A DNA stretch of 37,459 bases from Steroidobacteraceae bacterium. GTDB taxonomy: Bacteria; Pseudomonadota; Gammaproteobacteria; Steroidobacterales; Steroidobacteraceae. The notes under the pieces were generated by a model. That model did not search any database, was not told where the DNA came from, and was given only the letters and a program-made list of their open reading frames with translations. The stretch covers positions 1 through 37,459 of the forward strand of contig DATMEC010000256.1 of NCBI GenBank assembly GCA_035557125.1, given 5' to 3'. Position numbers and translations under genes: made by a program. This document shows positions 3,231-30,401 of this stretch, piece after piece (within the stretch, counting starts at the first letter, position 1; each line of letters begins with the position of its first letter).

Positions 3231-3252
3231 AGGGCGCGGGCCGTCGAATCAG
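3214..3252. terminator. Imperfect hairpin at the convergent SGNH / GH-A gene junction
   Basis: CTGATCGAC (3214..3222) pairs with GTCGaATCAG (3243..3252): 9 bp with a 1-nt bulge. An inner GCGC/GCGC stem lies at 3224..3227 and 3234..3237. Only 18 nt separate the two stop codons. There is no U-tract, so the call is weak. Confidence 0.25.
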
Positions 3253-4172
3253 GGTGAATCAGGCGCCAGCAGTTTCCTGAATTCGCGGTAGGCCAGTTTC
3301 TTCCCGAATCCGCCTTCAGGCCCGTACGTCAGGCCCCAGCCACTGTCCTTGTCGGGCGGCGCAGGATAGTGCTCGTCGTTGAGCTGGTAGTTGAAGATCA
3401 CTTGGATGGCGGGATCGGCCCCCAGGATGCCGCGCTCCGGGTCGTAGTATTCCTCGACGTACCTGCGCTGTGCTTCCTCGCCGCCTTCCTGGTCGGCCGT
3501 GGTCCAGCCGGTTTCCGTGATCCAGATCGGCTTGCGGCCGGCGACGAGGCGCTTCACGGCCTCGAGTTGCTGGCTCCGGTGGAAGACGTAGTAGTGCACG
3601 GACACGGCGTCGACGTATTCGAGCAGCCCGGATTCGATGAGCTTCCTCAAGTACGCGACGCCTTCTTCGGTTGCGCCGACGGCCGGGGCGACGATTCGCG
3701 CGTCTGGTTGGGCGGACCTGATGATGGAGTGCGCGTCGCGGAGCATTTTCATGTAGTCACCCGGCGCAATCGGGCCGCCCCACCAGCTCATCTCCGGCTC
3801 GTTCGCGATTTCCCATGCGGCGACGCCGGGCACGCCATGGACCTCCTTCCGGACGAGGGCCGGCCATCCGGCGGTATCAGCGGAATACCAGGGCAGGAGC
3901 GCGAGCACCCGGATCCCCTTGCGCGCCATGTCGGCGACGAAGGGGAAGTCCTTCGCCGGGTCCTCGTAGTCGCCGCGGATCCAGAAGGGCCCCGCGGCGC
4001 GCAGGTCGTCGAGGACCTTCGCGGCCTCCGGCGTGTATTCGTCGCCGTAGGCGCCGTGGTGGAAACAGACGCCGAGCTCGACGCGCTCGCGCGCGGCCGC
4101 CGTCGACAGGTGGCACAGGGCCAGCGCGATGAGAGCTACGTGGCGCCGTCGAATTCGCGGGCCCGGAATCAT
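3249..4172 (-). CDS. Secreted clan GH-A (beta/alpha)8 glycoside hydrolase, family unassigned
   Basis: C-terminal 307 codons of ORF 3249..5450, starting at ATG 4172 (MIPGPRIRRRHVALIALALCHLSTAAA signal peptide). WEIANEPE (acid/base NEP motif) and IWITETGW (nucleophile Glu) are typical of GH5/GH39-like clan A enzymes. ATGA overlap with the upstream gene. Confidence 0.7.
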   Translation of the reverse strand: MIPGPRIRRRHVALIALALCHLSTAAARERVELGVCFHHGAYGDEYTPEAAKVLDDLRAAGPFWIRGDYEDPAKDFPFVADMARKGIRVLALLPWYSADTAGWPALVRKEVHGVPGVAAWEIANEPEMSWWGGPIAPGDYMKMLRDAHSIIRSAQPDARIVAPAVGATEEGVAYLRKLIESGLLEYVDAVSVHYYVFHRSQQLEAVKRLVAGRKPIWITETGWTTADQEGGEEAQRRYVEEYYDPERGILGADPAIQVIFNYQLNDEHYPAPPDKDSGWGLTYGPEGGFGKKLAYREFRKLLAPDSP

Positions 4173-5380
4173 ACGATTCGCTGCGCGGCCGGCAGATGCC
4201 GCGGAGACAGGCGGGCCAACAGCGCCGGGGCGCCCGGAGGGCGCAGCTCCGGGTGGTCCGCGAGAAAGCCGCGCTGCGCGCTCGCCGCCGTGTGCGACGC
4301 ATCGCCGGGCGCCCAGCCCGGCGGCTTCACGAGATAGGCGAGCTTGATGCGCCAGCCGCGCGCACTGCGCAGGTCGCGCGCGAGCAGCAGGAACTCGCCG
4401 AAGTAAAAGTCCACGAAGCTGGTGACGTTGATGTCGCGCGTGATGCCGTATTCGATCTTCACCTCGTCGCGCAGGGGCTGGAGCGTGCCGAACATCCAGT
4501 CCCAGAACGGCAGCAGCGAGCAGAAGTTCCTGTCCATGTAGAGCGGGTTCTTCGCGTGATGCACGCGATGGTAGGAGGGCGTGATGATGAAGAAGCGCGC
4601 CGGGCCGAAGCGGCCCGTGCGGAACGAGCGCTCGCCCGCGTGGATGAAGGTCCCCCAGGTGACCTCGAAGGCCATGAGCACGACCAGCATGGCGGGCTCG
4701 ACGCCTAGCAGCATCAGGATCGGTACCTGCACTAGTGCGCTGTAGTAGCCCTCCGCGAAGAAGTGCACCCAGGCCACCGTCATGTTCAGGTTCTGGGGCG
4801 CGTGGTGCGGTGAGTGCAGGCACCACAGCAGGCGCACCTTGTGCGCGCTGTAATGCCAGGTCCACATGGACAAATCCCATATCAGCAGGGCATAGAGCCA
4901 GCCGTACCAGGTGTAACCGACATGAAACAGCGCAGACTGCTGGAAGTACGGCAACAGCAGCCAGAATACGTCGATCACGATCAGCCGCGGCAACAGGCCG
5001 AGCAGCAGACCTGCGAAAAAGGTGGGCTGATATTCGAGCGCCGTCGCCCGGAACAGTCGCGCCGCCATGCCCGGGCTGTGCCCCTGGGCGCGCTCCTTGC
5101 CGGCCTGCACGATGAAGAAGCGCGCGAGCTCCCACAAAGTCAGCAGCGAAATCAGCAGCCCGACCACCGCCAGCACGCTGTCGTGGTAATCGCCGTCGTT
5201 GAAGGGCTTGAGCAAGTCGGAGACAAATCCCTCGCCGCCGGCGGTTTTTTGCGCATAGTGCACGAGGCCGACCGCGAGGCCCCAGGTCGTGTAGACGAAC
5301 ACGGCAGCGAACAGCAACGCTTCGAGGTGCCGCCAGATCGGCGGGGTATTGCGCCAGGCCGGAATCCCAAGTGGTGTCAT
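4169..5380 (-). CDS. Integral-membrane fatty-acid hydroxylase / sterol desaturase superfamily di-iron oxygenase
   Basis: Part of ORF 4169..5512, starting at ATG 5380 (MTPLGIPAWRN...). Several hydrophobic helices. Three His boxes: HYSAH, HSPHH and HRVHH. ATGA overlaps at both ends (5377..5380 and 4169..4172). Confidence 0.8.
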   Translation of the reverse strand: MTPLGIPAWRNTPPIWRHLEALLFAAVFVYTTWGLAVGLVHYAQKTAGGEGFVSDLLKPFNDGDYHDSVLAVVGLLISLLTLWELARFFIVQAGKERAQGHSPGMAARLFRATALEYQPTFFAGLLLGLLPRLIVIDVFWLLLPYFQQSALFHVGYTWYGWLYALLIWDLSMWTWHYSAHKVRLLWCLHSPHHAPQNLNMTVAWVHFFAEGYYSALVQVPILMLLGVEPAMLVVLMAFEVTWGTFIHAGERSFRTGRFGPARFFIITPSYHRVHHAKNPLYMDRNFCSLLPFWDWMFGTLQPLRDEVKIEYGITRDINVTSFVDFYFGEFLLLARDLRSARGWRIKLAYLVKPPGWAPGDASHTAASAQRGFLADHPELRPPGAPALLARLSPRHLPAAQRIV

Positions 5381-8300
5381 GGGATGCGCTCGAATTCGAC
5401 GGCGTCGATGTAGACCGCGCCCGGCTCGTCGGAGGCCTGGCCGAAAACAAGGGTCAACCGGGCCTCGATCGCGCCGACCGGCACTACAGCTTCCAGTTCG
5501 TAGTCGTGCCATGAATTGGTAGGTGTCGCCGCGTCGGCAATCGCCCGCTCTTGCACGCCGAGCATTGCCGGGCCGCCGAAATAGTCGGCCCAGTGGTTGT
5601 AGAACTCAATTTTCATTGATGCTCGGTCATTCGGATCGGTCAGTTTCTCCTGTGAACGCACGAGCGCCGCGAGCCTTGCACGGACCCGCTCGCCGCTGGC
5701 GACGCTGATGCTTTGGCTCGTGCCGGAATAGTTGCCACCGCCGATCCCCTGACCGGAGATCTTCAACGCGTGAGTGCCATCGCGCACCGCCTCGCGATGC
5801 ACGAGCACATTCGGTTTGCCGTCGACGATATTGCCGAAGATGTGCCAGCCGGCCGGCGAGCCACCGTTCTCGTCGAATCCACCGTTTCGAAAAGTCCGGC
5901 TGCCAGGTTCGTCGGCGAGCTCGTAGACGCGGACCCAATCGACGAGCAAGCGCTGCGGCCACACCGTCGTCGCGTCCGGTGGCGGCAGGAAGTCGCCGCC
6001 GACCGCCGTATCGATGGCGAGCCGCATCGGCGCGGTGAAACTCGGCAGAAGGTATCCCACCTCGTCGTTGTAGTACGTCGCGTGATGCATGTCGTCGACG
6101 TAGAACCGGAGCTGGTTGTCGACCCATTCGCAGGCGAAGGTGTGAAATCCTTCGTCATACGAAACGAGCTGGCCGTCGATCCCCGTCTGCTGCGCGGTTC
6201 CAAACGACTCGTGTGAATCCGGGTTTTGCGTGCCCCAGCGAACGCTGCTCGAAGTGATCGTCGGCTGGTCGCCGCGATTCTCCATGATGCCGATCTCAAC
6301 CCCGGCCGGCCACGGCCCATCGGGCAGCAATCGGATGGCGGGCCACACGCCGCTGCCGCCAGGCAGCCTGGCCCGGACTTCCCACCGCCCGAGCCGTTGT
6401 GCCATTCGACTGGCGACCTTGCCGGAGCGATACGGCAGGCCGCGCGACGGCCTGTTCTCGGACAAAAGTTCCAGCTTGCCGTCCTTGACGCGGACTTGTC
6501 CCGGCAGAGAGTCCTGCAGCGAATCGTTCGTCGGCCGACTGTCGTCGATCAGCTCCCATTTGTCCGGGTCGAGCGAGTCGAAGTCCTCACTCCACACCAA
6601 CCGCCACTTGGGCGGCGGTTCGGGAATCAGCGTCAATCTGACGAGCGCGCCTCCCGCTGCGGCGAGGGGGAGGGTGAGCTCGTCGACTGGCGTCACTTCG
6701 CGCGATTCGAGCTTGAAGCCCTGTTGCGTGGCGAGATCGTCCCGGTAGGTCTCCGCCTGAAACATTCCCGCCGGCAGGAATGAGAGCGGTACCCGTACAT
6801 CTCTAGCGTGCCGATCCGTCATCGCACCGACCCACCAATCGTTGCCGCTGCGGCGAGCGATCACCACTTCCTCGCCCACCCGGGCAGCCAGCGCTACCGT
6901 GTCGTCCCAAGTGGAAGGTATAGCGGCCATGAGCCGTGTGAGCGGATGCCGGCGATAGGCCGAGGGATAGTCGGCCATCATCGGCAAGTGATTCTGCAGC
7001 ACGACGTACGAGGCGAGCATCCGGGCGGGCGTGCCGATCACCAGCGGTTCGGCGACCCTTGGCTTGAACCGGTCGAGCGGCACGCCGCGGAGCGAGCCCT
7101 GGTGGTAGTCGAGCGGGCCGGCGAGCATTCGCGTGAGCGGCACGGTGACGTCGTGCTCCGGCGTCACGCCGACTTCGTCCCACTTGCCATGCTCCAGGTT
7201 CAGCACAGCCTCGCTGTTTAGCAGGTTCGGAAAGGTCCGCTCGAGGCCGGTCGGCGCCGCGACGCCGTGGAACGTCACGGTCAGGTAATTGTCGGCCGCG
7301 AGCTGCAGCAGCTCGCGCTGGAATCCGACCATCTCCTGGTCGTCGCGGTCCATAAAGTCGATCATCACGCCCTCGATGCCCCAGGCGCGATAAAGCGGAA
7401 ATGCACGGGCCATGTGTCGTTTCGCCGCCTCCCAGTGCATCCACAGCCGAAGCCGCACGCCCTTCTGCCGCGCATAGGCGATGACTTCCTGTAGATCGAG
7501 TCCGTCGATTCCTTGGGTGATGTCGGCGCCTTCGTACGGCACGATAGGCCCGCCATACCAGGCCAGGCCGTTGACGCCGTCGAGCGTGTGATAGGGGATG
7601 CCGTACTCTGCGCAGAAGTCGATGTAGTACCTGGCCGTTTCGGTGTTGAGACCCATCTTGAACGGCACGCCCGTTTCAAAGAAATCGTTCCACCACGGGA
7701 ACGTCGTCTTGCCCGGCCTGATCCACGAAGTGTCGGCAATCGCGCTCGGCGCGTTGAGCTTGAGTACGGTGTCCGATTCGACCAATTGCCGCGCCTCCTG
7801 ACCAACCAGGATCAGCCGCCAGGGCGACTCGTGCGGCAGGGTGGCGCGGACGGCAATCTTCGGCTTGTCCGGACGGGGCGAGAGCCGGCTGACCAATGTG
7901 TTGCCGGAGCCCGTGCCTCGCGCGAGATACATGCCGGCGTAGTCGGTGAGGTTCGCCTCGAGGACGACGGCCCAACCGACGCCCGACAGTTCCACCAGGA
8001 GCGGCAACCCCAGCAGCCAGTCGGCTGGAATCTCGTCGACGCCTCGCCGCTCGTAGCGGCCTTCGTGCGACGTGGTGAAGCCCGCGAGCGGCAGCGCCGT
8101 TGTGACCGCGCCTCTCGGAAAGGCAAATTCCGTCAGCTCGTCGGCCAGTTCCAGATCCGACCAACCCGGCTGTTTGGGAAACCGGTACCGCAGCGCGACG
8201 CCGTCGTCATACGCGCGAACCACGAGCTGCCATTCAAACAGCTTCGCTCCGCGCTCGCGCAGCGTAATCGTGGCCTGGGATGCGCGATCTACCACGTGCC

Positions 8301-8628
8301 TGCGCTTGCCGGGATATTGCTCGAACGAGTCGTCAATCTCGATCGAGTCAGTGCCAACGACCACGCTATTGCGACCGAGCTCCATTCCCTCATTCAGGCG
8401 AACGCCCAGGTTCGATGCGTCGACGACCATTCGATCCGACAGGGAAACCCGGTACTGGACCTGGGTCGCCGCTCCGGACGCCGCACTCGTGAAGAGTTCG
8501 AACTCTAGGCGCCCACTTGGAGAGCGGACGACCACCGGATTGCTCTGTGCCGCTTCGCCCGCGCCGACTGCTCCGCACAGCAATACGCAAAGTCGGGCTA
8601 GGCGGGCAAGGAATGTCGTCATTGACAC
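5377..8628 (-). CDS. Secreted three-module enzyme: GH97 alpha-glucosidase-like + GH16 beta-glucanase-like + C-terminal CBM-like domain
   Basis: ORF 5377..8628 (GTG 8628; alternative ATG 8622). Signal peptide MTTFLARLARLCVLLCGAVGAGEAAQ. GH97 signature GIEGVMIDFMDRDDQEMV. GH16 block GVWPAIRLLPDGPWPAGVEIGIMENRG starts after about residue 670. The last ~175 aa (FRNGGFDENGGSPAGWHIFGN...) resemble a CBM4/9/22-type sugar-binding jelly roll. Confidence 0.8.
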   Translation of the reverse strand: MSMTTFLARLARLCVLLCGAVGAGEAAQSNPVVVRSPSGRLEFELFTSAASGAATQVQYRVSLSDRMVVDASNLGVRLNEGMELGRNSVVVGTDSIEIDDSFEQYPGKRRHVVDRASQATITLRERGAKLFEWQLVVRAYDDGVALRYRFPKQPGWSDLELADELTEFAFPRGAVTTALPLAGFTTSHEGRYERRGVDEIPADWLLGLPLLVELSGVGWAVVLEANLTDYAGMYLARGTGSGNTLVSRLSPRPDKPKIAVRATLPHESPWRLILVGQEARQLVESDTVLKLNAPSAIADTSWIRPGKTTFPWWNDFFETGVPFKMGLNTETARYYIDFCAEYGIPYHTLDGVNGLAWYGGPIVPYEGADITQGIDGLDLQEVIAYARQKGVRLRLWMHWEAAKRHMARAFPLYRAWGIEGVMIDFMDRDDQEMVGFQRELLQLAADNYLTVTFHGVAAPTGLERTFPNLLNSEAVLNLEHGKWDEVGVTPEHDVTVPLTRMLAGPLDYHQGSLRGVPLDRFKPRVAEPLVIGTPARMLASYVVLQNHLPMMADYPSAYRRHPLTRLMAAIPSTWDDTVALAARVGEEVVIARRSGNDWWVGAMTDRHARDVRVPLSFLPAGMFQAETYRDDLATQQGFKLESREVTPVDELTLPLAAAGGALVRLTLIPEPPPKWRLVWSEDFDSLDPDKWELIDDSRPTNDSLQDSLPGQVRVKDGKLELLSENRPSRGLPYRSGKVASRMAQRLGRWEVRARLPGGSGVWPAIRLLPDGPWPAGVEIGIMENRGDQPTITSSSVRWGTQNPDSHESFGTAQQTGIDGQLVSYDEGFHTFACEWVDNQLRFYVDDMHHATYYNDEVGYLLPSFTAPMRLAIDTAVGGDFLPPPDATTVWPQRLLVDWVRVYELADEPGSRTFRNGGFDENGGSPAGWHIFGNIVDGKPNVLVHREAVRDGTHALKISGQGIGGGNYSGTSQSISVASGERVRARLAALVRSQEKLTDPNDRASMKIEFYNHWADYFGGPAMLGVQERAIADAATPTNSWHDYELEAVVPVGAIEARLTLVFGQASDEPGAVYIDAVEFERIP
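6280..6297 (-). other. GH16 catalytic motif variant E-I-G-I-M-E (canonical E-I-D-I-M-E)
   Basis: The reverse complement of 6280..6297 reads GAG ATC GGC ATC ATG GAG. The middle Asp of the ExDxxE motif is replaced by Gly (GGC). Confidence 0.85.
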
Positions 8629-8638: not shown

Positions 8639-11140
8639 TCAGCGCCAGCGCACCACGACTTCAGCCGCGTCCTCGAATTCGAGCGTCGCTTGTGGAGTCA
8701 TCGGCTCCATCTGGCGCAGCTGTTCGAGTTTCTGCTTTTCCCAGTAGACGTCGCTCAGGGCCTCGAGTGGGTCCAGCATGCGTACGACCTCCGATTGCAC
8801 GTCCGTCGCCGCTCCGTTGACCGTCGCCCCCTGCGCCGTGTCGAATCCGTGCAGGATCAGCTTGATCTTCCGGAACCGCCCGGTAAAGCTCCCTTCGGGG
8901 CGCGAGAAGCGGACTTGCTTCGTCGCTGGGTCGAACGTGATCAGCCGCTTGTGAAACCGCCCCTTGCGGTAGTCAAGAGTTTCGCCGTCATCGTCGTAGT
9001 AGGCGAACTCGCTCCGCTCGGCGCCATTGAAGACGTGGACGTAAAGCAGCGGCCCCGGATCGTCTCGTGTCGATTGCACCTTTCCCTGCATCGGAATGAT
9101 TGCCGACGCCTTTGCGAAAATCGGGATCCGGTGGCCTGCATAGTCCGCTGTGTGGATGCGGCCGCCGTCAAGCCGCTCGTCCGTGAACAGGTCATACCAT
9201 TGTCCTGCGGGCAGGTACGTCGACTTCCTCTGCTCGCGGCTCGTCATGGGATTCACCAGGAGCCCGGGACCGAACAGGAACTCGTACTGATAGTCCGGGT
9301 TGTAGACGATGGCGTCGAAAGGCGAATCCATGGCGAGGCTGCGGCTCACCGGCATGCCGGTTTGGGACGATTCGAAAAAGGTCGAGTAGAGATATGGCAT
9401 CAGCTCGTACCGGAACCCGATGTAAGCCTTCGAAATCGCCTCGACTTCCTCGCCGTAAGCCCAGGGCTCGTTGGCCGCCGTGTACTGCCCGCGATGGTTG
9501 CGCAGGTACGGGGCGAAGACGCCGACCTCGATCCAGCGACGGAACAGGTCCTTGTTGCCGTCGCCGATATAGCCGCCGAGGTCGGGACCGGTGAACGGCA
9601 CGCCGGACAATCCCATCTGGTTGATGAGCAGCGCGCCGAGCAGGATGTGCTCGTCCTTCGCCTGGTTGTCGCCGCTCCACACCGCGGCGTAGCGCTGGAT
9701 TCCCGCAAACCCCGAGCGGCTGAGCACGAAGGGTCGCCGGTTCCCGCCGTATTGCTCGGCCGACTCGAACGCGGCGCGCGCCATCAGCATGCCGTAGTAG
9801 TTCTGCGCCTCGAGCGCCGAGGCCTCCTGGCCGTCGAAGTCGAACACCACGTTGTCCGGCATGGCTTGCCCGTCGATCGCGGGCTCGTTCATGTCGTTCC
9901 AGAGACCGTGGATCCCGAGGTCCTGGTATAGCTTCATGTTGTCGACCCACCAGCGGCGCCCGCGCGGGTCGGAGAAGTCGACGAAATGATTGGTGTTGGG
10001 CGCGATGTCCGCGATCCAGAGTTCGCCGTCCGCGTAGCGCAGGAAGACGTCTTCCTTAAGACCGCTCTTGTACTGATCGTACGTGTCGTCGATCGCGATC
10101 CCGGGGTTGACCGAGGCGGTCAGCTCGATGTCCATGTCGCGCAACGTATCGGCGAGGCGCCGCATGTCGGGGAAACGTTCTTTATTGATGCGAAATGGCT
10201 GGTATCGGTGCAGGTAGTCCGCGTCGAGGACGATGCCGTCGAGAGGTATGCCCTTGGCCCGGAACGTGTTGGCGATGAACATCACCTGGGCTTCCGGATA
10301 GTAGCTGCACCGCGACTGCTGGTAGCCGAGGCTCCAGCGCGGCGGCAGGGGCATCCGGCCGGTGAGGCCGGTGTAGTGCTCCAGTACTTTTCCGGGAGAA
10401 GCGTCGAACATGAAGAACTGGTCCAGTGCGCCGCCGTCGAAACTGAAGGAGGCGAAGCGGCGGTTGGAGGCGCCGAAATTGAAGACGGAACGATAGGAGT
10501 TGTTGAAGAAGAGGCCGTAGACCTTTCCGTGATGCAGTCCCATGAAGAAGGGAATGCTCACGTACATGGGAATCTTGGGATCGTCGTACTGGTAGTTGTC
10601 CGTGTTCTTGAGCGTGATCACCGACCCGCGCCGGTCAAGGTTCCCGAGCGCCTCGCCCATGCCGATGAAGCGCTCTGCCTCCTGCAGCCGCTTGTAGATG
10701 GTCAGCTTGCGGCCGATCGTCGTGATTCCGAGCTCCCTGCCGCGCAGGTCCTCGTTGATGACGGCGCCGCCTGCATCCTTGAAAGTGAAGCGCAAGTCCG
10801 GCCGCAGTTCGACCTCGGTCGTGACGCTCGACGTTTTCACTACGACGATAGGATCAGCGGCGCTTACGCTGAACTGCGAAAAGTCTGGTACCTCGTCCGT
10901 CTTGAGGGCGTAGCCGGCGTGCCGCTCCACTCCCTCGGGCAGGACGCGCACGCGGATGACGTGGGGAGAGTAGACATCTACAGAGAAATCGGCCGTCGCG
11001 GTGCGCCCGGCGATGCCGTGCGCCGTTTTCTCGTACGACAGCACAGGGCCGAGATTGTCGGCGTGCGCAATGGGCGCCATTGCGCCCAGCATCAATAGGC
11101 CAGCACCGGCCGTCCGGACCACGGAACGAGTCGCCATCAT
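8639..11140 (-). CDS. Secreted GH31 alpha-glucosidase family enzyme
   Basis: C-terminal 833 codons of ORF 8639..11389, starting at ATG 11140 (MMATRSVVRTAGAGLLMLGAMAPIAHA signal peptide). GH31 signatures GLWNDMNEP (nucleophile Asp), WSGDN and GPDLGGY. ATGA overlap with the cytochrome b561 stop codon. Confidence 0.9.
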   Translation of the reverse strand: MMATRSVVRTAGAGLLMLGAMAPIAHADNLGPVLSYEKTAHGIAGRTATADFSVDVYSPHVIRVRVLPEGVERHAGYALKTDEVPDFSQFSVSAADPIVVVKTSSVTTEVELRPDLRFTFKDAGGAVINEDLRGRELGITTIGRKLTIYKRLQEAERFIGMGEALGNLDRRGSVITLKNTDNYQYDDPKIPMYVSIPFFMGLHHGKVYGLFFNNSYRSVFNFGASNRRFASFSFDGGALDQFFMFDASPGKVLEHYTGLTGRMPLPPRWSLGYQQSRCSYYPEAQVMFIANTFRAKGIPLDGIVLDADYLHRYQPFRINKERFPDMRRLADTLRDMDIELTASVNPGIAIDDTYDQYKSGLKEDVFLRYADGELWIADIAPNTNHFVDFSDPRGRRWWVDNMKLYQDLGIHGLWNDMNEPAIDGQAMPDNVVFDFDGQEASALEAQNYYGMLMARAAFESAEQYGGNRRPFVLSRSGFAGIQRYAAVWSGDNQAKDEHILLGALLINQMGLSGVPFTGPDLGGYIGDGNKDLFRRWIEVGVFAPYLRNHRGQYTAANEPWAYGEEVEAISKAYIGFRYELMPYLYSTFFESSQTGMPVSRSLAMDSPFDAIVYNPDYQYEFLFGPGLLVNPMTSREQRKSTYLPAGQWYDLFTDERLDGGRIHTADYAGHRIPIFAKASAIIPMQGKVQSTRDDPGPLLYVHVFNGAERSEFAYYDDDGETLDYRKGRFHKRLITFDPATKQVRFSRPEGSFTGRFRKIKLILHGFDTAQGATVNGAATDVQSEVVRMLDPLEALSDVYWEKQKLEQLRQMEPMTPQATLEFEDAAEVVVRWR

Positions 11141-11712
11141 TTCCGTTCGACGCCGCGGAACGTCATGCGCTGGAACGTCGGCACGCGGTCGAACCACTGG
11201 TGCTTGGAAGCGCCGATGAGGTGCGCCGCGAGCAGGAAATACAGCAGGTAGCTCAACCACTCGTGCACGATGTGGGCCAGTTCGTCGAGGGCCTTCTTCG
11301 GCTCCGGCGCCATGTTGGCCACCCAGGCGATCCGAGGCATCTCGAACAGTCCGAAGACGTCGATGGGGACATCGGCAGCGTATTCCCACGCCGAATCATA
11401 GATCCATCCGGAAATCGGCATCGCCAGTATCAAGAAATACAGGGCGGCATGGCCCGCGCGCGCGGCAACCGCCTGCCAGCGCGGAATCGCCGGGCTGAAT
11501 GGCGGCGGCCGATGAGCGATGCGCCACAGGAGCCGCATCAGCGCAAGACCGAGGACCGTGATGCCGATGGTCTTGTGTGCATTGGTGACTGATTGGGTCC
11601 ACGAGTAATCCGGCCAGATCTTGAAGATCCATGCCAGAGTCACGTTGCTGAGGACCATCGCGCCGATGACCCAGTGCAGGACGATCGCGGTGCGCGTATA
11701 GCGATCGTTCAC
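11137..11712 (-). CDS. Cytochrome b561 family membrane protein (CybB-like di-haem b-type cytochrome)
   Basis: ORF 11137..11712 with a GTG start. Pattern YTRTAIVLHW...AHKTIG...RLLWRIAHRPPP...GHAALYFLILAMPISG...HEWLSY...AAHLIGASKH...FQRM matches the conserved His and helix layout of E. coli CybB-type proteins. Confidence 0.8.
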   Translation of the reverse strand: MNDRYTRTAIVLHWVIGAMVLSNVTLAWIFKIWPDYSWTQSVTNAHKTIGITVLGLALMRLLWRIAHRPPPFSPAIPRWQAVAARAGHAALYFLILAMPISGWIYDSAWEYAADVPIDVFGLFEMPRIAWVANMAPEPKKALDELAHIVHEWLSYLLYFLLAAHLIGASKHQWFDRVPTFQRMTFRGVERK

Positions 11713-12548
11713 CGTGGCAGATTCCGCGCCGTGGTGTCGCGCTCATCGGCGAGCCAAACGTCGCTTGCCTCGTCGCCGCTGAATCGCCGCTCCCCGTACT
11801 CGCGGATGCGGCTGCCCGGAACCTTGGTCAGCGGCGTGTAGCGAGGATGCTGGGAATCCTTGTACGGGTCGTTGCGCGCGGCGTTGTAGCTGCAGATCAT
11901 CGACCAGCGCGGGTTCATCGACTTGTTCTGGTCCGACCGATGCAGCGTGTTGCAATGGAAGAAGAGGACGTCGCCCGGTTCCATCTCGACGTGCACGAGC
12001 TCCTGCCGCTTCAGGACCTCCTTCACGCGCTCGATGTCGGCCCCGGCCTGCTCGCCGGTGAGGACGTGGTCGATGCGGCCCAGGTGATACGAGCCGCGCA
12101 CCACCTGCAGGCAGCCGTTCTCGCGCGTCGCGCGGTCGACCGCGATGAAGGCGCTTCCCATCCATGGATTGAGGACGCCGTTGTGGTACCAGTAGCCGTA
12201 GTCCTGATGCCAGGTCCACGCACCGCCGGTCAACGGGTCCTTCATGATCATCTTGGAGTGATAGTGGTAGACCTCGCCGCCCAGGAGCTTCTCCATCGAT
12301 CCGACGATGGACTCCGAGCGCGCGATCATGCCGTAGATCGTGTCGGTAGGATGGTTCCAGAGCGACAGTCGCACCGTGCCGCCTTCGCCATCCGCGCGCC
12401 CGAAAGAATGCTGGTCGAGCACGCGGTCTTCGCGCGCCGCGCGCGCGAGGAGATCCACCTCGACGGCGTCGAGCATGCCGCGTGCCAGCACGAAGCCGTC
12501 GGCGTTGAATGCGCCGACTTCCGCATCGCCGATCGGTCCGCTGGTCAT
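11709..12548 (-). CDS. PhyH (phytanoyl-CoA dioxygenase) family Fe(II)/2-oxoglutarate oxygenase, cytoplasmic
   Basis: C-terminal 279 codons of ORF 11709..13649, starting at ATG 12548 (MTSGPIGDAEVGAFNADGFVLARG). HxD triad context WTWHQDYGYW and distal His FFHCNTLHRSDQN. No signal peptide. 4-nt overlaps at both ends. Confidence 0.75.
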   Translation of the reverse strand: MTSGPIGDAEVGAFNADGFVLARGMLDAVEVDLLARAAREDRVLDQHSFGRADGEGGTVRLSLWNHPTDTIYGMIARSESIVGSMEKLLGGEVYHYHSKMIMKDPLTGGAWTWHQDYGYWYHNGVLNPWMGSAFIAVDRATRENGCLQVVRGSYHLGRIDHVLTGEQAGADIERVKEVLKRQELVHVEMEPGDVLFFHCNTLHRSDQNKSMNPRWSMICSYNAARNDPYKDSQHPRYTPLTKVPGSRIREYGERRFSGDEASDVWLADERDTTARNLPR

Positions 12549-13879
12549 TGGCTTCTCCTCGACGGCTCCAACCAGTGCTTTTCGATCTCCTCGAGCGTCC
12601 GGTTCCGGGTCTCCGGCACGAACCTCCAGGTGAACAGCGCCTGCGCCAGCGAGAACGCCGCCAGGATTGCGAACGTCGGCGCCTGGCCCAACTGATTCAA
12701 CGCCGCCGGAAACAACAGTACCACCACCGCGTTCGCCACCCACTGGGTCAGCACGGGCACTGTCATCGCCGTGCCACGCACGTGCGTCGGCAGGATTTCC
12801 GGCACCAGCGTCCAGAACACCGGCCCGATGCACGAGGCGAAAAAGGCGAGGTAGGCCAGGATCAGGACCAGGGCCAGCGGGCCTTCGAAATGCCCGAGCA
12901 GCACCGAAATCGTCAGCGCAGCGAGCGCGACGGCCATGCCCAATGATCCGACGATGTACAACGGGCGGCGACCGTAGCGATCGATCGTCCAGAAGGACAC
13001 CAGCGTGAACACAAAATTGGCGATGCCGACGACGAATGTAGACAGCAGCGCGGCGTCCAGATCCCAGCCCGCCGATTGGAAGATCATGGGCGCGTAGTCG
13101 ATGACTGTATTGATGCCGGAGAAATGGATCAGGATGGCGAGCCAGAAGCCGACGAATACGGCGCGGCGCACGCCCGGCTGGAACAGATCCCGCCAGGAGC
13201 GTCCGGTCGTGGTCGATACCTCGGCAGCCGCCGACGACACCTCGTCGGGCGAGTCTCCGATCCGACTCATGACGGCGCGTGCCTCGTCGCGGCGTCCCGC
13301 CATGAAGAGAAACCTCGGCGTCTCGGGAGCGCGCAGCAGCAGCGCGAAGAAAACCACGGAAGGGAACACGCCGGTGCCGAACATCCAGCGCCAGTTGTCC
13401 GGTCCGATGTCGTGCAGCAGGTAGTTGATGCAGTAGGAAACCAGAATGCCCGTGACGATGGACATCTGGTAGAGCGCGCCCAGCCTCCCGCGCACGGCCG
13501 CCGGCGCGACCTCGGCGATGTACATCGGCGAGACCAGTGACACCGCGCCGACGGCCAGGCCGCCGATGAATCGTGCGGCGAGGAAACTGGGGAAATCCCA
13601 GGCGAGGGCCGTTGCGACCGAGGTCAATGCGAAGAGCACGGCGATCCACAGCAACACGTACCGGCGGCCGTAGCGATCGCTCATTCGGCCGGTAACGGCG
13701 GCTCCGAGTGCACAGCCGAACAGCAGCGAACTGAACGCGACCCCGAGGCCGAAATCGCCGAGCTCGAAATGCCGGGCCAGGAACGGCCCCGCGCCGCTGA
13801 TGATCGCGACGTCGAACCCGAACAGCAGGCCGCCGGTCGCAGCGGTGCAGGCAAGGAACAGGACGTAGCGCAGGTTCAT
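12545..13879 (-). CDS. MFS sugar porter family transporter
   Basis: ORF 12545..13945 with the start set to ATG 13879 (MNLRYVLFLACTAATGGLLFGFD). Motifs GRMSDRYGRRYVL and PETRNRTLEEIEKHW. 12-TM-type hydrophobicity pattern. Confidence 0.85.
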   Translation of the reverse strand: MNLRYVLFLACTAATGGLLFGFDVAIISGAGPFLARHFELGDFGLGVAFSSLLFGCALGAAVTGRMSDRYGRRYVLLWIAVLFALTSVATALAWDFPSFLAARFIGGLAVGAVSLVSPMYIAEVAPAAVRGRLGALYQMSIVTGILVSYCINYLLHDIGPDNWRWMFGTGVFPSVVFFALLLRAPETPRFLFMAGRRDEARAVMSRIGDSPDEVSSAAAEVSTTTGRSWRDLFQPGVRRAVFVGFWLAILIHFSGINTVIDYAPMIFQSAGWDLDAALLSTFVVGIANFVFTLVSFWTIDRYGRRPLYIVGSLGMAVALAALTISVLLGHFEGPLALVLILAYLAFFASCIGPVFWTLVPEILPTHVRGTAMTVPVLTQWVANAVVVLLFPAALNQLGQAPTFAILAAFSLAQALFTWRFVPETRNRTLEEIEKHWLEPSRRSQ

Positions 13880-13881
13880 CG

Positions 13882-16089
13882 CTATTCCCTGGCGAGTATT
13901 TTCAACATCTCGCCAATCTCCGGATTCGACATGAACGCGCGCCACAGGAGCCCCGTGCGGTGGTTCTCGACCATCGCGACGATCGGCGCCTGGTTCAGGC
14001 CCATGTAATGTGCGGACAGCCAGCTCTGGGTCGGGTTGTAGTTGTCGCGCGGGCCGTAGATGCCCCAGAGCTCAGCGCCGAGCTCGCGGTAGAAGTGCTT
14101 GAACGCGGCCATCGACGCTTCGGGCGTGTACGGGAACGAGGCGAGCGCCCCGGTCAGCGTGATCGTGCCGTCGTCGTTCCACTGGTCCGGGGCCGGCGTC
14201 GTGTAACCGTTCCAGCCAAAGCTCGCCGTCAATCCCCAGGCGTTCGCCCCATAACCCTTGAAACCTTTGGGATTCGCGATGCAATAAGCCCGGTTGATCT
14301 CGGCGATGCGGCGGTTGTTGTCGAAGTACGAGTCCGTGTACCGGTCGCGCAGGGCACGCGGGTCGATGCCCATGAACATGTAGTGGATGAAAAAGAGAGG
14401 CCCGCCGCTGCTGACGCCGACGTCGAGCTTGATGCCGTAGTAGCTGTTGCCGTTGGCGTAGAGCCGGCCGTCGGGGCTGCCGGACCAGCCCTGCCGGTAG
14501 TCCTGCGCGCGCTTGTCCTGGCTCGCCCAGCCACTGTAGTACAGGCTCGCCGGCACCGGGTGCGTGGGCGAGGCGATCCCCAGCAGGTAGGTCAGCTGGG
14601 TCTCGTTGAACCCGATCAGCGGGTGCTGGATTCGGTATCCCCACTGCGGCGACCAGTGCCAGTAGAGGAACGGACTGTCGGCCGTCATGCGGAACCAGTC
14701 CCATTCCACCGCATGCCAGAGCGCTGTGATCCGCTCGCGCAGCGACTTCTCGCGCCGCGTGCCGCGGTCGAAGTATCCGCGCGCCGTCAGCAGCCCCTGG
14801 ATCATGTACGAGGTCTCGATGATGTCGCCGCCGTTGTCGTACATACCGAAGAGGGCCATCGTCCCGCCGGTGTCCTCGTTGTAGTAGTGCGACCAGGCGC
14901 CGTGATAGCGCGGCGCGCGCTCGAGGAAAGACACGAGCGTTTCGAGCCGCTCGAGGCCCTGGTCGCGCGTGATGAACCTGCGGTCGACGGCCGCGATCAG
15001 GGCGCTGAGGCCGAGCCCCGTCGCGCCCGTGGCCAGCACGCGGTCGTCACCCGGCAGGTTTTCGCGCGCCATACCGGTGCTAGCGCTCGACGCTTCCCAG
15101 TAGTAGCGGAAGGCCGCCTCCTGCAGCATGTCGAGTAGTTCGTCGTCCGTCATCTCGCGTGTTGCCGCCGTGACCGCGGCCGATGCACTTGACTGGCGCC
15201 CCTTCCAGTCCGCGGCTGCGACCTGGTAACGCGCCGTAACGCCCGACCGGCCGATGAAGTCGGCGTATCGGTTGACGCCCGGCCGTTGCGTGCCGACCGG
15301 CAGGAACGGCCCGCCGTCGATCGAGCGGGACACGACGTAGTACTCCGCGGCGCTTTCCACGGGCGCGCGCCATTGCACGTCGATATGGCGGTCATAACCC
15401 TTCGCCGACACGCCATCCGGCACCGGCAATGCCGTCGCGGCCGCGCCTGCCGCGGTTTCGTCGTCGATCCGGATGTCGTCGACGATCAAAACGTGCTTCT
15501 TTCCGTCCGCGCGCCGTTGGTGAAGAATGACGCTTTGCAGGCGCTCGGATCGAAACTGGTAAACGGACGCCGAGCGGAGCTTCGCGAACGGAATCCGGAC
15601 GGGTACCCATTCGCCGGCGGGAAGGTCGCCCGTGTAGTCCGCGAGCGGTTCCTCGACGGTGAAGCTGCCAGGCATCGTCGCCACCTGCAGGCCCCCGCGC
15701 GCATCGGACAGCGTCACGTTGGGCAGATCGGCCGCCGCGATGGGTTCCGGCGAATAGACCCAGAAAAAGAGTGTCCCTCCGGCAAAGTCCGGAAATCGAT
15801 TCGGGTAACTCACGAACTGAATTTGCGCATCCCAGCTGCCGCCGGGCACCGAGGTCCACTCGATACGCAAAGCGTTGGGTGCCGTGCGAAATACCGTGGA
15901 TTCCACCGGCAGGCGGTAGTGCATCGAGCGGAGCTGGCTCGGTTCCGTCTCCGCGGCGCTCGACTGGAAGTACTGCTGGAGCTGCTGGCTGTTGTCGAAG
16001 AAGACGTGGCGATAGTAGTCCGACTGCGCTGCAGCAGGATGGCCGGCGCACAGGCCGACGGCGAGGAAGCAGAGTAACGGGCGATTCAT
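13882..16089 (-). CDS. Secreted multi-domain (alpha/alpha)6 glucanase of the putative-glucoamylase/DUF3131 type, most likely a GH144-like endo-beta-1,2-glucanase, with N-terminal CBM-like and Fn3-like modules
   Basis: ORF 13882..16098. ATG 16089 is preferred because AAGGA lies 8 nt upstream. Signal peptide [22 protein letters not shown]. Catalytic region motifs [48 protein letters not shown] and [23 protein letters not shown] resemble proteins annotated as the glucoamylase family (GH144). The family assignment was made from memory only. Confidence 0.65.
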
Positions 16090-16125
16090 CTTGCGCATCC
16101 TTTCGCTTCTGGCAACAGGCCCATG

Positions 16126-18318
16126 TCAGCGGGCAACGCCGATCTCCTGCGCCAGCGGCAGGTTCCGCGACGAGGCACCGACGGCAACGCGATAACGTCC
16201 TGTCGGACGGTTCCAGCCGGCACTGCCCGAATCCCAGACGCGCAACGCATAGGGATCCGGAGAGATGCGCACGCGGCGCCGCTCGCCCGGCGCCAGCTCC
16301 ACGCGCGCCCAGCCGGCCAGTCGCTTCGAGGGTTCGTCGGACGACGGTGGGAACTCCAGGTACAACTGCGCGACCTCGATGCCCGCCCGGTCGCCCGTGT
16401 TGGCGAGGTCGAAGGCGACCGAGAGATCGGGATTCACGGCGAGGTTGGAGTACTCGAACGTCGTGAAGGACCGCCCGTAGCCGAACTCGTATGCCGGTGT
16501 CTTCTTCTGCGCGTCGTACCACCGATAGCCCACCGCCAGGCCTTCGCTCAATCGGATGACCGGCTGGCGCGACGGCGCGACGGCCGGTTTCGTCGGGTCC
16601 GCCAACGACTCGGCTGGATGAGGGCGTGGCAGGTCCGCCTCCGTGCGCGGGAAGCTGATGGGCAGCCGGCCGGACGGGTTGACACGGCCGAACAGGATGT
16701 TCGCGATCGCCTCCGCGCCGCGATTGCCGGGATACCAGGCTGCGAGTAGGGCGCCGACCTGCGGCGCCCACGGTGTCAGTACGGAACCTCCCGTCTGGAG
16801 GACGACGACAGTGCGCGGGTTGGCGGCCGCCACCTTCCGGATGAGGTCGTCCTGGCCAGCCGGCAGCGACAGGGTCAGAAGGTCCTTTCCTTCCTCGCGC
16901 GACTGCCACGCAAAGAGGATCGCCACATCGGCAGAGGCGGCGAGGGTGGCCGCGGCATCCGAGTTCTCGCCGGACGCGAACTCGACCTTCGCCGAGGGCG
17001 CCATCTTCGCGATCGCCTCCAGGGGAGACGAGTGATGCCAGCCGGTGCTCGCGAACATGGCGAGCTCGGCCGGCGTGCCGGGCGGCGTATCGTCCAGGGT
17101 GACGCCGCCGATCGCATCGACGCGCGACGACCCGCCGCCGGACAGGACGCCGATGTCGGCGCGACGGCCGATTACGGCGATCTTTTTCAGGTTCGCCGCT
17201 TGAAGCGGCAGCAGTCCGTCACGGTTTTCCAAGAGTACGATACCGCTTTCGGCAACGCGCTGCGCGACGGCAAGGCCCGCCGCGCTGTCGACAGGCTGCA
17301 CGGTTTCCGTACGGTCAAGCGCACCGATCGCGGCGAGGCTGCGCAGGATGCGACGCGCCATGTCGTCGATGCGCGCCCTGGAAACCTCGTTTTTCTCCAC
17401 GGCTGCCTTCAGCGCACTCGCGAAATAGCGCTCCTCGTAGAACTCCTGGTCGAGGCCCGCGTTAGCGGACTGCGCGGTGCTGTGCGTCGCCCCCCAGTCG
17501 GACATCACCCAGCCCTTGAAGCCCCACTCGGACTTCAGGATGTCGCTGAGGAGGTGCGAGTTCTCGCAGGCGTAAATGCCGTTAACCTTGTTGTAGGCGC
17601 ACATCGTGCTGCCGACGCCGGACTCCTTCACGACGATCTCGAAGGGCAGCAGGTCGACCTCGCGCAGCGACCGTTCATCGACGCTCATGTCGACCCAATG
17701 GCGATCCGTCTCCTGGGAGTTCGCCACGAGGTGCTTGACGGTCGAGACCACGCCCGTGGACTGGATTCCGCGCACCTGCGCCGTCGTCATGCGCCCCGCC
17801 AGGATCGGATCCTCGCCGAGATACTCGAAATTCCGCCCGTTCCAGGCGTCGCGCTCGACGTTTGCGCCGCCGGCGAGCAGCACGTTGAAGCCGCGGTCGC
17901 GCGCTTCGCGGCCCATGACTTGGCCGCTCTCGAACGCGAGATCCGCATCGAAGGTCGCGGCCAGCGCCTGCGACGACGGAAAGGCCGTGGCCCGGCCCTC
18001 CGGACCGCCCGCGATATTCCTCACCCCGAGCGGTCCGTCATTCAGCTGCAGCGCGGGAATTCCGACCCGCGGCATCGCCGCGATGAAGCCGGCCCCTTGG
18101 TGTGCGCCGTCAGGCGCCGGCTTTCCCGCGTAGGCGAACCCGAGCGACCCGTGGAACAGGTGGAGCTTCTCGTCGAGCGTCATGGCCCGGACGAGCGCGT
18201 CGGCGCGCTCGTCCGGGCTCAGCCCGCGGTCCCGCCAGGCCTCGGGCGGCTGCGCATTCAATGTGGACGCGCCGAGTGCGGCCAGCGCAAATCCGGCGCC
18301 CCGAATACTCCATGACAT
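16126..18318 (-). CDS. Periplasmic GH3 beta-glucosidase (divergent from the two BglX-like paralogs)
   Basis: ORF 16126..18318. Signal peptide MSWSIRGAGFALAALGASTLNAQ. Motifs MTLDEKLHLFHG, KHLVANSQE and GWVMSDWGA (nucleophile Asp), with a C-terminal Fn3-like domain. Confidence 0.9.
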   Translation of the reverse strand: MSWSIRGAGFALAALGASTLNAQPPEAWRDRGLSPDERADALVRAMTLDEKLHLFHGSLGFAYAGKPAPDGAHQGAGFIAAMPRVGIPALQLNDGPLGVRNIAGGPEGRATAFPSSQALAATFDADLAFESGQVMGREARDRGFNVLLAGGANVERDAWNGRNFEYLGEDPILAGRMTTAQVRGIQSTGVVSTVKHLVANSQETDRHWVDMSVDERSLREVDLLPFEIVVKESGVGSTMCAYNKVNGIYACENSHLLSDILKSEWGFKGWVMSDWGATHSTAQSANAGLDQEFYEERYFASALKAAVEKNEVSRARIDDMARRILRSLAAIGALDRTETVQPVDSAAGLAVAQRVAESGIVLLENRDGLLPLQAANLKKIAVIGRRADIGVLSGGGSSRVDAIGGVTLDDTPPGTPAELAMFASTGWHHSSPLEAIAKMAPSAKVEFASGENSDAAATLAASADVAILFAWQSREEGKDLLTLSLPAGQDDLIRKVAAANPRTVVVLQTGGSVLTPWAPQVGALLAAWYPGNRGAEAIANILFGRVNPSGRLPISFPRTEADLPRPHPAESLADPTKPAVAPSRQPVIRLSEGLAVGYRWYDAQKKTPAYEFGYGRSFTTFEYSNLAVNPDLSVAFDLANTGDRAGIEVAQLYLEFPPSSDEPSKRLAGWARVELAPGERRRVRISPDPYALRVWDSGSAGWNRPTGRYRVAVGASSRNLPLAQEIGVAR

Positions 18319-21300: not shown

Positions 21301-21466
21301 TGGCCGTAACCTCCGTGCCGGCGGGCGCCTTGCCGCGCAACGCGGAGTTGGCCGACTGCGCGGCGGCCTCTTGCGGCAGCACATTCGCCATCAGGATCGC
21401 GCCCACGAGAATCGCGAGTCGCCGGCTGCCCAGGGTCCCAGTCCTCATCGTCTTCCGAGTGTTCAT
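18335..21466 (-). CDS. TonB-dependent outer-membrane receptor with N-terminal carboxypeptidase-regulatory-like domain (Oar-like)
   Basis: ORF 18335..21559 with the start set to ATG 21466 (MNTRKTMRTGTLGSRRLAILVGAILMANV...AAAQ). The N-terminal segment GTEVTATNAETGF...GSYVLVGLPPGTYQV is followed by a plug and a long beta-barrel region. The protein ends with Phe (...SMNVMF). Confidence 0.9.
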   Translation of the reverse strand: MNTRKTMRTGTLGSRRLAILVGAILMANVLPQEAAAQSANSALRGKAPAGTEVTATNAETGFTRQVQVSSEGSYVLVGLPPGTYQVSAGPGTERTVTLSVASTSTLNFEGGEQVTALGEVQVSGGRLAEVKTSEVGGGVSLRQIESTPQITRNFLEFADAVPGMKFEVDARGNTQIRSGTLNTGTTNVYIDGVGQKNYVRPSGVTGQAGADSNQNTTGSPGNPFPQLAIAEYKVITSNYKAEYDQVSGAAITAVTKSGTNEFEAAAFMTYSDSDFRAKTPPELAAGTGKQGGDSKEYGFSLGGPIIKDRLHFFVTYEAKEFTTPNTILVPQIFDASGEVPDWASGLTPELRENYGPVANPFDEDLIFAKLDWQITGSDRLELSGKKRKERQQSGAAGVVAESAASTYINDDERLALRWEHLGDSYFNEAAVTYEDTRDTPSKAGDLPGQRFVALNTQGDGFDPILQIDGVDPRSYFFTTQSGYSVQDDITFTEFDWHGEHTLKTGVKFKDVELQVRDASTEALYDFWVSPDPANGGVEEDPFQVTFGAQADASINPTSTSKNRQYGIYFQDDWAVNDRLTLNLGIRYDYEETPTYTDYVTPQRFIDAINALDPNGCPVDVQDDPALCGYNFSGGYHGSQPGQTYRETLAIAGIDIDDYISNGSNRSDPSDQIAPRFGFSYDVNGDEAHVVFGGAARSYDRNTFSILQHETNKATLYVPTVQFWNDSDAVGNLCPSGTLNNAFCLPWDDAYLTPEGLASIAPGNFGEMHFINNNLDAPYSDQFTLGMRNLVGEWNTSAAIAYITSYDGVIASSGNRFGDGTWYWYDSFAYAESTALIPNAGGGALRLFDNAKATRTTQLLLSADRPYDAETGWSTSLAYTFSYAKERLEFNGDYQFDYASPYYSPYALSGEVPKHRLVAVGSYDVPWGITLGAKMVVETPKPLAGIYTFDEDVAPPNGLNYDFIKRSRHPQDTIGFFTLDLQATKTFEFGDRGAVQFRIDVLNATNRENMAFLFSADPDQPFYFKDGDLAGVPRTFKVSMNVMF

Positions 21467-21530
21467 GAGATTTCCCTTGCTCGTTGATTCCCGCGGCGCC
21501 GCCCGTAGCCGGCGCAGCCCCCAAATGAAG

Positions 21531-23329: not shown

Positions 23330-23379
23330 CGACCCTCCGCCTACTTGTGGTAGTGGATCAACGACGCGAGCCGGCCCAA

Positions 23380-24344: not shown

Positions 24345-24349
24345 GCCCG

Positions 24350-28168: not shown

Positions 28169-28169
28169 C

Positions 28170-29270: not shown

Positions 29271-29285
29271 GGACCGCGCACACCG

Positions 29286-30386: not shown

Positions 30387-30401
30387 ACGGAGAGCGAAAT
30401 G

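Follow-up and report, generated by a model that had tools for sequence, protein, structure and literature searches.

A predicted membrane di-iron oxygenase recurs with GH144-type glycan utilization genes in Steroidobacteraceae and Bacteroidota

Introduction

Why should a gene for a membrane-embedded oxygenase lie between two genes for secreted glycosidases and overlap both? We met this arrangement in 37,459 nucleotides of DNA from a Steroidobacteraceae bacterium (assembly GCA_035557125.1, contig DATMEC010000256.1, positions 1 to 37,459 of the forward strand; this whole stretch is called the window below). Here the penultimate gene of a long minus-strand unit headed by a TonB-dependent receptor encodes a predicted di-iron oxygenase of the FA_hydroxylase superfamily (Table 1). 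Its upstream neighbor encodes a protein with glycoside hydrolase family 97 (GH97) and GH16 domains, and its downstream neighbor encodes an exported glycosidase of clan GH-A.

Glycan utilization loci are read nearly wholly as sets of hydrolases, lyases, and esterases, and the few oxygenases known in them, such as the P450 demethylase of porphyran loci, exposed hidden substrate chemistry. The present locus is of the β-1,2-glucan type, and β-1,2-glucans are periplasmic, symbiosis, or virulence glycans of bacteria. Here, we describe a functional setting that is conserved and new for an enzyme superfamily already known, and we propose with moderate confidence that β-1,2-glucan-type (GH144) glycan utilization loci recruited the oxygenase, which serves them as a dedicated accessory enzyme.

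Results

The oxygenase gene recurs beside GH144 genes and fused to a glycosidase

Scanning a single genome per species, we obtained 80 loci and analyzed them by tblastn with marker proteins and by all-against-all clustering of open reading frames (ORFs). Thirteen related loci come from Bacteroidota (Chitinophagaceae, Ferruginibacter, and Flavobacterium; 44 to 54% identity to the window protein). In all 13 of them, a GH144 gene immediately precedes the oxygenase orthologue on the same strand, and the gap between the two genes is 6 to 9 nucleotides (nt) in the two loci for which gene calls were available (L002 and L004). These loci encode one to five GH144 paralogues each, close to the endo-β-1,2-glucanase 5GZH (E = 1.8e-138). 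A GH144 gene occurs within ±10 kb of the oxygenase in 15 of 23 focal-group loci versus 0 of 62 others (Fisher p = 2.7e-11, for loci that are phylogenetically nonindependent).

In the window, the GH144 protein matches the β-1,2-glucooligosaccharide sophorohydrolase BDI_3064 over its full length (PDB 5Z06; E = 3.5e-208), and the locus is therefore of β-1,2-glucan type. The combination of a GH144 protein near characterized enzymes with GH3 enzymes is that of a GH144 β-1,2-glucan cluster, and activity on β-1,2-glucan is predicted accordingly from homology.

Homologues at 80 to 89% identity come from Steroidobacteraceae metagenome-assembled genomes (MAGs), in which the block GH97-GH16, oxygenase, GH-A, DUF4886, GH3, ..., Gfo/Idh/MocA dehydrogenase (Gfo) recurs (L001 and L009 to L012). 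The gene for a PhyH-family dioxygenase adjoins that for Gfo in the gene calls of L001, and markers for both are present in L009, L010, and L012. A further locus (L008) retains GH144, a major facilitator superfamily (MFS) transporter, GH31, GH16-X, and the oxygenase and is without GH97 and GH-A. The bond between oxygenase and glycosidase goes as far as fusion: at least six protein clusters of about 690 amino acids each carry PF04116 and PF11790 in one polypeptide, read as a single ORF that runs from the oxygenase through a hydrophobic helix into the GH-A domain. One of these clusters (P0008) comprises 11 sequences from 8 contigs; its fusion is therefore no sequencing error.

Start site, overlaps, and family assignment

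The minus-strand letters at 5380-5377 read cccATGAcacc, in which the start codon of the oxygenase (ATG, 5380-5378) and the upstream stop codon (TGA, 5379-5377) overlap. At 4172-4169 they read cgtATGAttcc, and here the oxygenase stop TGA (4171-4169, minus strand) overlaps the ATG of the GH-A gene (4172-4170). The spacings along GH31, GH97-GH16, oxygenase, and GH-A are thus 10, -4, and -4 nt. Gene overlaps in operons most often take the form ATGA, and the window holds at least three more (MFS/PhyH, 12545-12548; ABC permease/PhyH, 27395-27398; ROK/cupin, 22484-22487). The overlaps themselves are unremarkable; what goes beyond chance is the neighborhood conserved across genomes.

An alignment with 32 homologues places the first methionine of the oxygenase at 5380. 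Its frame stays open upstream to an ATG at 5512, which would give a 447-amino-acid version (4169-5512, minus strand). The alignment rules out this start as a high-GC artifact, along with a 733-amino-acid ORF in another frame (3249-5450, minus strand) that spans the oxygenase gene and runs into the GH-A gene. The two open frames are a trap for longest-ORF gene calling.

PF04116 (FA_hydroxylase) is the sole Pfam family that the oxygenase matches, at 90 bits against a gathering cutoff of 31 bits (E = 2.3e-25; profile positions 1 to 132 of 132; residues 161 to 299). The His boxes H176YSAH180, H189SPHH193, and H271RVHH275 are invariant in the 33 aligned sequences, as are H206 and H247. An AlphaFold2 model (mean predicted local distance difference test score [pLDDT], 80; predicted template modeling score [pTM], 0.79) and a hydropathy scan both give six long hydrophobic helices. 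The C terminus carries a conserved extension of about 100 amino acids, and its last 103 residues match no Pfam family. Profile score, the three-box pattern HX3-4H, HX2-3HH, HX2-3HH, and predicted topology all agree with the FA_hydroxylase superfamily, and we predict the product to be a di-iron membrane oxygenase with histidine ligands that uses O2.

A preliminary description of this DNA, made from its letters, had read the gene as a hydroxylase with HYSAH, HSPHH, and HRVHH boxes and multiple transmembrane (TM) helices, joined by ATGA overlaps on both sides to its neighbors. The PF04116 match, the six predicted helices, and the codons at 5377..5380 and 4169..4172 bear this out. The clan GH-A assignment of the downstream protein likewise stands, by its PF11790 match and its ANEPE and ITETGW motifs. 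In the label GH97-GH16-CBM given to the upstream protein, the two glycosidase domains were confirmed, and the carbohydrate-binding module (CBM) was not verified, the last 180 residues (window positions 5380-5919) having no Pfam match.

Predicted topology

Over the 33 sequences, net charge is +2.7 at the N terminus, +3.8 in the loop between helices 2 and 3, and +3.9 in the C-terminal domain; the His-box segments carry +0.8 and +2.8, and loops 1-2, 3-4, and 5-6 are near neutral. By this positive-inside bias, the di-iron site and the C-terminal domain are assigned to the cytoplasm. In the fusion forms, one extra TM helix joins the C-terminal tail of the oxygenase to the GH-A domain, an architecture that agrees with cytoplasmic His boxes because the GH-A protein bears a signal peptide when encoded separately. 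A topology check suggested in the preliminary description thus puts the His boxes at the cytoplasmic face of the inner membrane, with the fused glycosidase predicted to lie in the periplasm.

A proposed role in glycan breakdown

How might such an enzyme serve a glycan locus? The TonB receptor would import the glycan, and the secreted GH144, GH3, GH31, GH97-GH16, and GH-A enzymes would trim it to a residual product that resists hydrolases because it retains a group of hydrophobic or ether type; this could be an ether (alkyl or methyl) or an aglycone or substituent that resembles a lipid. The product would reach the inner membrane or enter through the MFS or ATP-binding cassette (ABC) transporter. 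There, the oxygenase would hydroxylate it, drawing electrons from a ferredoxin-type donor shared with the rest of the cell. Hydroxylation at the carbon next to oxygen is favored; the resulting hemiacetal would collapse, as in alkylglycerol monooxygenase (AGMO), into a normal sugar and an aldehyde. Cytoplasmic PhyH and the Gfo/Idh/MocA enzyme, which co-occur with the oxygenase in both phyla, would perform neighboring oxidative steps.

Our confidence in this specific chemistry, hydroxylation with C-O cleavage, is lower than that in the general role. An amphiphilic or hydrophobic part of the substrate is the simplest assumption, because the site is membrane embedded and the fusion tethers a glycosidase at the outer face; the target may be a lipid or ether aglycone or an O-alkyl or O-methyl decoration. 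Tentatively, the family may form a new class of auxiliary oxidative enzymes, membrane di-iron oxygenases that free β-1,2-glucan-type substrates of nonhydrolyzable groups, either ethers (O-methyl or O-alkyl) or lipid-like moieties (a lipid anchor or aglycone).

Weighing the accessory role against alternatives

Several points weigh against the accessory role and its chemistry. None of the β-1,2-glucan decorations known to us (phosphoglycerol, succinyl, and methylmalonyl) obviously requires such an enzyme. The loci share neither a dedicated electron-transfer partner nor a gene for handling aldehyde or formaldehyde, and the window operon has no ferredoxin or reductase gene. A PDB sequence search with the family profile returned no relative, and a Foldseek search of PDB with the AlphaFold2 model returned only meaningless channel or receptor matches (E > 2; TM-score < 0.2); these searches yield no informative relative and hence no functional lead. 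The only named match in NCBIfam is the ornithine-lipid hydroxylase OlsE, far under its cutoff. Orthologues at 54 to 71% identity stand alone in nonglycan contexts: one is beside genes for a poly(A) polymerase, a sulfotransferase, and a TonB receptor (L005/L016), another is beside genes for patatin, phospholipase C, and a second FA_hydroxylase (L089), and further cases are L006, L014, L091 (71% identity), and L092. At such conservation, the same chemistry is probable everywhere, which suits a common membrane lipid as well as a molecule that comes from a glycan, and the enzyme may thus act on the cell's own lipids. Lastly, with poor support for the deep nodes of the tree, single and repeated recruitment appear indistinguishable.

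For the tree tests, we divided 12 of the 13 GH144-linked Bacteroidota loci into two groups, A (L002, L013, L018, and L037) and B (L004, L015, L025, L026, L042, L044, L063, and L076). The remaining locus, L019 of the cultivable Flavobacterium sp. XS2P39, belongs to neither. Neighbor-joining (NJ) bootstrap support is 87% for Steroidobacteraceae, 81% for group B, 48% for group A, 40% for A plus B, and 26% for the whole focal group. A single clean "glycan clade" in our first NJ tree was lost on bootstrapping, and we do not claim monophyly. Clustering a library at 50% identity reduces the full-length family to a single representative of full length; 221 representatives match at E ≤ 1e-30, mostly about 300 amino acids long and sharing part of the C-terminal extension.

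One alternative is that the enzyme demethylates or dealkylates a soluble, imported sugar, cleaving methyl or short alkyl ethers of glucose or oligoglucosides in the cytoplasm with release of formaldehyde. This would be a special case of the accessory role, with a polar rather than a lipophilic substrate. It fits the predicted cytoplasmic active site, beside MFS and ABC sugar importers, and the many acidic and aromatic residues that are invariant near the His boxes (E84, E210, E250, D283, N285, W161, W168, W204, W242, W295, and Y326). Other branches of the protein group lie beside glycan genes of other kinds, which would suit a decoration remover reused across glycans. Relatives of about 330 amino acids (39 to 45% identity; L072, L075, L077 to L080, and L082), without the first two TM helices, are divergently oriented from a SusC/SusD/DUF4961/GH92 α-mannosidase polysaccharide utilization locus (PUL) in seven genomes (Arenibacter, Flagellimonas, and a Bacteroidia MAG), which is a second, separate tie of the protein group to glycan loci; further branches adjoin GH20, GH29 with sulfatases, an AT3-SGNH acyltransferase, or an FAD protein. 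Bacteroidota genomes are, however, rich in carbohydrate-active enzymes (CAZymes), so that loose GH proximity is weak evidence and may be chance in these clades. Other points also count against soluble-sugar demethylation: we know of no methylated β-1,2-glucans, the loci are without conserved formaldehyde-detoxification or ferredoxin/reductase genes, and within the FA_hydroxylase superfamily, a six-TM enzyme that acts on a soluble sugar would stand out as unusual. There is a precedent in mocDEF, an accepted part of rhizopine catabolism (PMC10107442), but MocD is treated as a fatty-acid-desaturase-type enzyme rather than a PF04116 member. On balance, we consider this alternative rather unlikely.

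On a metagenomic contig (L088, 5764-16097), genes for GH97 and a distant GH94-like protein come after that of an orthologue at 53% identity. The GH94-like protein was rejected as independent β-1,2-glucan evidence, being only a distant relative of cellobiose phosphorylases (E = 1e-14). Upstream, on the opposite strand, lie genes for a GMC oxidoreductase and a Gluconate_2-dh3 small subunit, which recall glucoside 3-dehydrogenases.

A second alternative is that the enzyme hydroxylates endogenous membrane lipids, at the head group or on an acyl chain, and is coexpressed to adapt or protect the membrane during passage of cyclic glucans, which can complex lipids; the nutrient itself would be untouched. 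The stand-alone orthologues described above, one of them near patatin, phospholipase C, and a second FA_hydroxylase gene, suit such a role, as do the predicted position of the catalytic site in the membrane at the cytoplasmic leaflet and the lack of a substrate-specific electron partner. The match to OlsE (NF052566; E = 1.6e-11; residues 163 to 318) points the same way, but at 44.1 bits it is far from the equivalog cutoff of 475, and we rejected identity with OlsE; no other named family of NCBIfam, nor any of Pfam beyond PF04116, matches the protein. A housekeeping enzyme would not be expected directly behind GH144 in 13 of 13 Bacteroidota loci, its translational coupling or fusion to a periplasmic glycosidase in Steroidobacteraceae would likewise be surprising, and we regard lipid modification of this kind as improbable, to much the same degree as the demethylation of soluble sugars.

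It is very unlikely that the gene is a mere passenger, drifted in and kept by operon structure alone with a role unlinked to the glycosidases: neighborhoods of family members do vary and ATGA overlaps are no proof of function, but adjacency and the same partner enzymes have persisted in two phyla despite about 50% sequence divergence, in-frame GH-A fusions occur in several protein clusters, every catalytic histidine is conserved, and the GH144 association (15 of 23 versus 0 of 62) stands against it.

The accessory role in glycan utilization therefore remains the reading that we prefer. The preliminary description had tied the hydroxylase to glycan catabolism, a link that the GH-A fusions, the recurring Steroidobacteraceae block, and the adjacency to GH144 in 13 of 13 Bacteroidota loci support; the substrate chemistry that it attached to that link has the standing of a hypothesis, and its interpretation as a whole is thus partly supported. 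It had also considered that the gene might sit next to GH genes only in this genome, and GH neighbors recur in other genomes. Its phrase "unusual PUL component" holds for the word unusual, the literature that we searched containing no such component, and fails for PUL: no SusD is found among the window genes, although a TonB-dependent receptor and CAZymes are present. The window holds a proteobacterial locus of the TonB-dependent transporter type, not a SusC/SusD-type Bacteroidota PUL.

The surrounding locus

Features of the window are listed in Table 1.

TABLE 1 Positions, strands, and assignments of features in the 37,459-nt window
Feature	Position	Strand	Remarks
GH3 protein; DUF4886 protein	49-2367; 2262-3230	+	Convergent with the GH-A end of the minus-strand unit
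Exported clan GH-A glycosidase, 307 amino acids	3249..4172	-	Weak PF11790 match; NEP and TETG motifs
Membrane di-iron oxygenase (predicted), 403 amino acids	4169..5380	-	PF04116; six predicted TM helices; three His boxes
Secreted GH97 + GH16 protein with two catalytic domains	5377..8628	-	GH97_N, GH97, GH97_C, GH16
GH31 α-glucosidase-type enzyme	8639..11140	-	Likely start ATG at 11140; ORF open to 11389
PhyH-family 2-oxoglutarate/Fe(II) dioxygenase, cytoplasmic	11709..12548	-	ATGA-coupled to MFS gene
MFS sugar transporter (Sugar_tr)	12545..13945	-	
GH144 (PF10091) enzyme	13882..16098	-	Full-length homologue of BDI_3064
Secreted GH3 β-glucosidase-type enzyme	16126..18318	-	
TonB-dependent outer-membrane receptor	18335..21559	-	CarboxypepD_reg + OMP_b-brl_4; operon head
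ROK sugar kinase; bicupin protein	21531-22487; 22484-23428	-	Upstream of receptor
Second unit	24068..32744	+	Sugar ABC importer: substrate-binding protein, permeases, MalK
Second PhyH protein	27395-28168	+	
Gfo/Idh/MocA dehydrogenase, cytoplasmic	28170-29270	+	
GH3 protein of second unit	30399-32744	+	

The GH-A protein scores 36 bits against PF11790 (Glyco_hydro_cc; cutoff, 21 bits), contains ANEPE and ITETGW motifs, and has a signal-peptide-like N terminus. Its other matches are faint (PslG/GH39 at E = 1.5e-3, GH59, and GH5). This small enzyme is found in Steroidobacteraceae loci only and may represent an undescribed clan GH-A family.

The nearest relatives of the GH97 domain are retaining α-galactosidases, followed by α-glucosidases; those of the GH31 enzyme are α-glucosidases. 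GH16 plus its tail also occurs as a module without GH97: L008 has it immediately upstream of the oxygenase gene, and Bacteroidota locus L015 contains a related ORF.

The operon is otherwise tightly packed, and about 560 nt (11141-11708) separate the PhyH gene from the likely GH31 start. This gap holds only a 116-amino-acid ORF without a Pfam match, and neither it nor any other part of the window matches Rfam; a promoter or another regulatory region inside the operon could lie here.

The minus-strand PhyH (11709-12548) is orthologous to that of the Bacteroidota GH144 loci, and its orthologue adjoins the oxygenase and Gfo genes in L002, L013, and L026. Both PhyH proteins of the window are without a signal peptide, and the gene for each overlaps a transporter gene (MFS and ABC permease, respectively) at its start through ATGA. 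In relatives, the second unit (ABC, PhyH, Gfo, and GH3) directly adjoins the oxygenase block, and the GH3-DUF4886 pair also flanks that block in Steroidobacteraceae. For the ABC binding protein and the Gfo enzyme of the window, PDB relatives are of generic sugar type only.

The Gfo copies differ at their N termini. That of the window starts MLRIGVLG and has no signal peptide, and the copy in L001 is short (367 amino acids); the Bacteroidota loci encode exported Gfo/Idh/MocA proteins with a signal resembling those of twin-arginine translocation (Tat), SRQxFL, which has a single arginine (e.g., L002 11283-12452 and L037 16864-18033). This step may therefore take place in different compartments in the two phyla. 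A gene for a PF03747 ADP-ribosylglycohydrolase, unexpected in a glucan utilization locus, adjoins the exported Gfo gene in L015, L018, L025, L037, and L044.

Besides GH144, the Bacteroidota loci encode PhyH, GH97, GH31, GH3, GH30, and GH43 proteins, a GDSL esterase, a PF01663 phosphodiesterase, ROK, an AraC-type regulator, a short-chain dehydrogenase/reductase (SDR), the ADP-ribosylglycohydrolase, a xylose-isomerase-like TIM barrel, a multiheme cytochrome c lipoprotein, and PSCyt/DUF1501 proteins. SusC and/or SusD occurs in L018, L019, and L026. The lipoprotein has about 420 amino acids and about seven CXXCH motifs; multiheme or cytochrome modules lie at L002 956-2215, L004 725-1972, L013 944-2203, L025 3759-6488 and 9106-10515, and L044 14175-15683. 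Some loci carry PSCyt1-PSCyt2-PSD1, DUF1501, and a PSCyt1-LRR-DUF2231 membrane cytochrome immediately after the oxygenase. Together with the exported Gfo and the TIM barrel, the heme lipoprotein and PSCyt proteins look like a periplasmic electron-transfer module for sugar oxidation.

Discussion

The recurrence of the oxygenase with GH144 points to an undescribed O2-dependent step in glycan breakdown, within β-1,2-glucan turnover. If a class of enzymes that strips nonhydrolyzable groups exists here, the substrates that GH144 loci naturally meet in soil and freshwater would bear undescribed decorations, and PhyH, Gfo/Idh/MocA, and, in Bacteroidota, c-type cytochromes would form an oxidative side pathway around the oxygenase. 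Two outcomes can be envisaged. Study of the family may reveal unknown decorations or aglycones on β-1,2-glucans and a new activity for the label "sterol desaturase family," which many bacterial genes carry; or it may reveal that bacteria remodel their own membrane when importing cyclic glucans.

Comparison with known systems

AGMO (TMEM195) offers the mechanistic template: it hydroxylates the carbon next to an ether oxygen, and the bond then falls apart. Like the window oxygenase, AGMO is a multipass membrane protein of the PF04116 superfamily with His-box di-iron chemistry. It is, however, a eukaryotic, tetrahydrobiopterin-dependent enzyme of ether lipids, and the resemblance is mechanistic only; the window oxygenase has two extra N-terminal helices, its own C-terminal extension, and a place in a glycan utilization operon. 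OlsE is likewise an FA_hydroxylase-type enzyme at the inner membrane and modifies the head group of a polar lipid, but it has about 290 amino acids and is unlinked to glycosidases.

The closest functional precedent is the cytochrome P450 6-O-methyl-D-galactose demethylase of marine porphyran utilization loci, reportedly described by Reisky and colleagues in 2018, a PUL-encoded oxygenase that removes a nonhydrolyzable decoration in the cytoplasm and thereby lets glycan degradation run to completion. Unlike the window oxygenase, to which it is unrelated, it is a soluble heme enzyme with dedicated ferredoxin and reductase genes nearby and a known substrate.

For MocD, a demethylase role on the rhizopine 3-O-methyl-scyllo-inosamine is said to have been proposed by Bahar and colleagues in 1998, which would make it, like the enzyme envisaged in our soluble-sugar alternative, a membrane histidine-rich oxygenase acting on a soluble sugar-like molecule. 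The mocDEF genes are part of a rhizopine catabolic cluster that also holds a Gfo/Idh/MocA dehydrogenase (PMC10107442). Unlike the window locus, MocDEF brings its own Rieske ferredoxin and reductase and has no glycosidases; the window protein matches PF04116 only, with neither of those partners in its operon. We rejected MocD as a same-family precedent, a desaturase survey having grouped it with fatty-acid desaturases.

With respect to glycosidases, the window and the Bacteroidota loci resemble the clusters of Chitinophaga pinensis SGL and Parabacteroides distasonis BDI_3064, which combine GH144 with GH3 β-glucosidases. The papers on β-1,2-glucan enzymes and clusters that we searched mention no hydroxylase, desaturase, oxidoreductase, or dehydrogenase, and our literature searches found nothing relevant that links sterol desaturase, fatty acid hydroxylase, or PhyH to PULs, SusD, GH144, or TonB loci. 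The redox set of FA_hydroxylase, PhyH, Gfo, and cytochromes c is thus additional to the characterized GH144 clusters.

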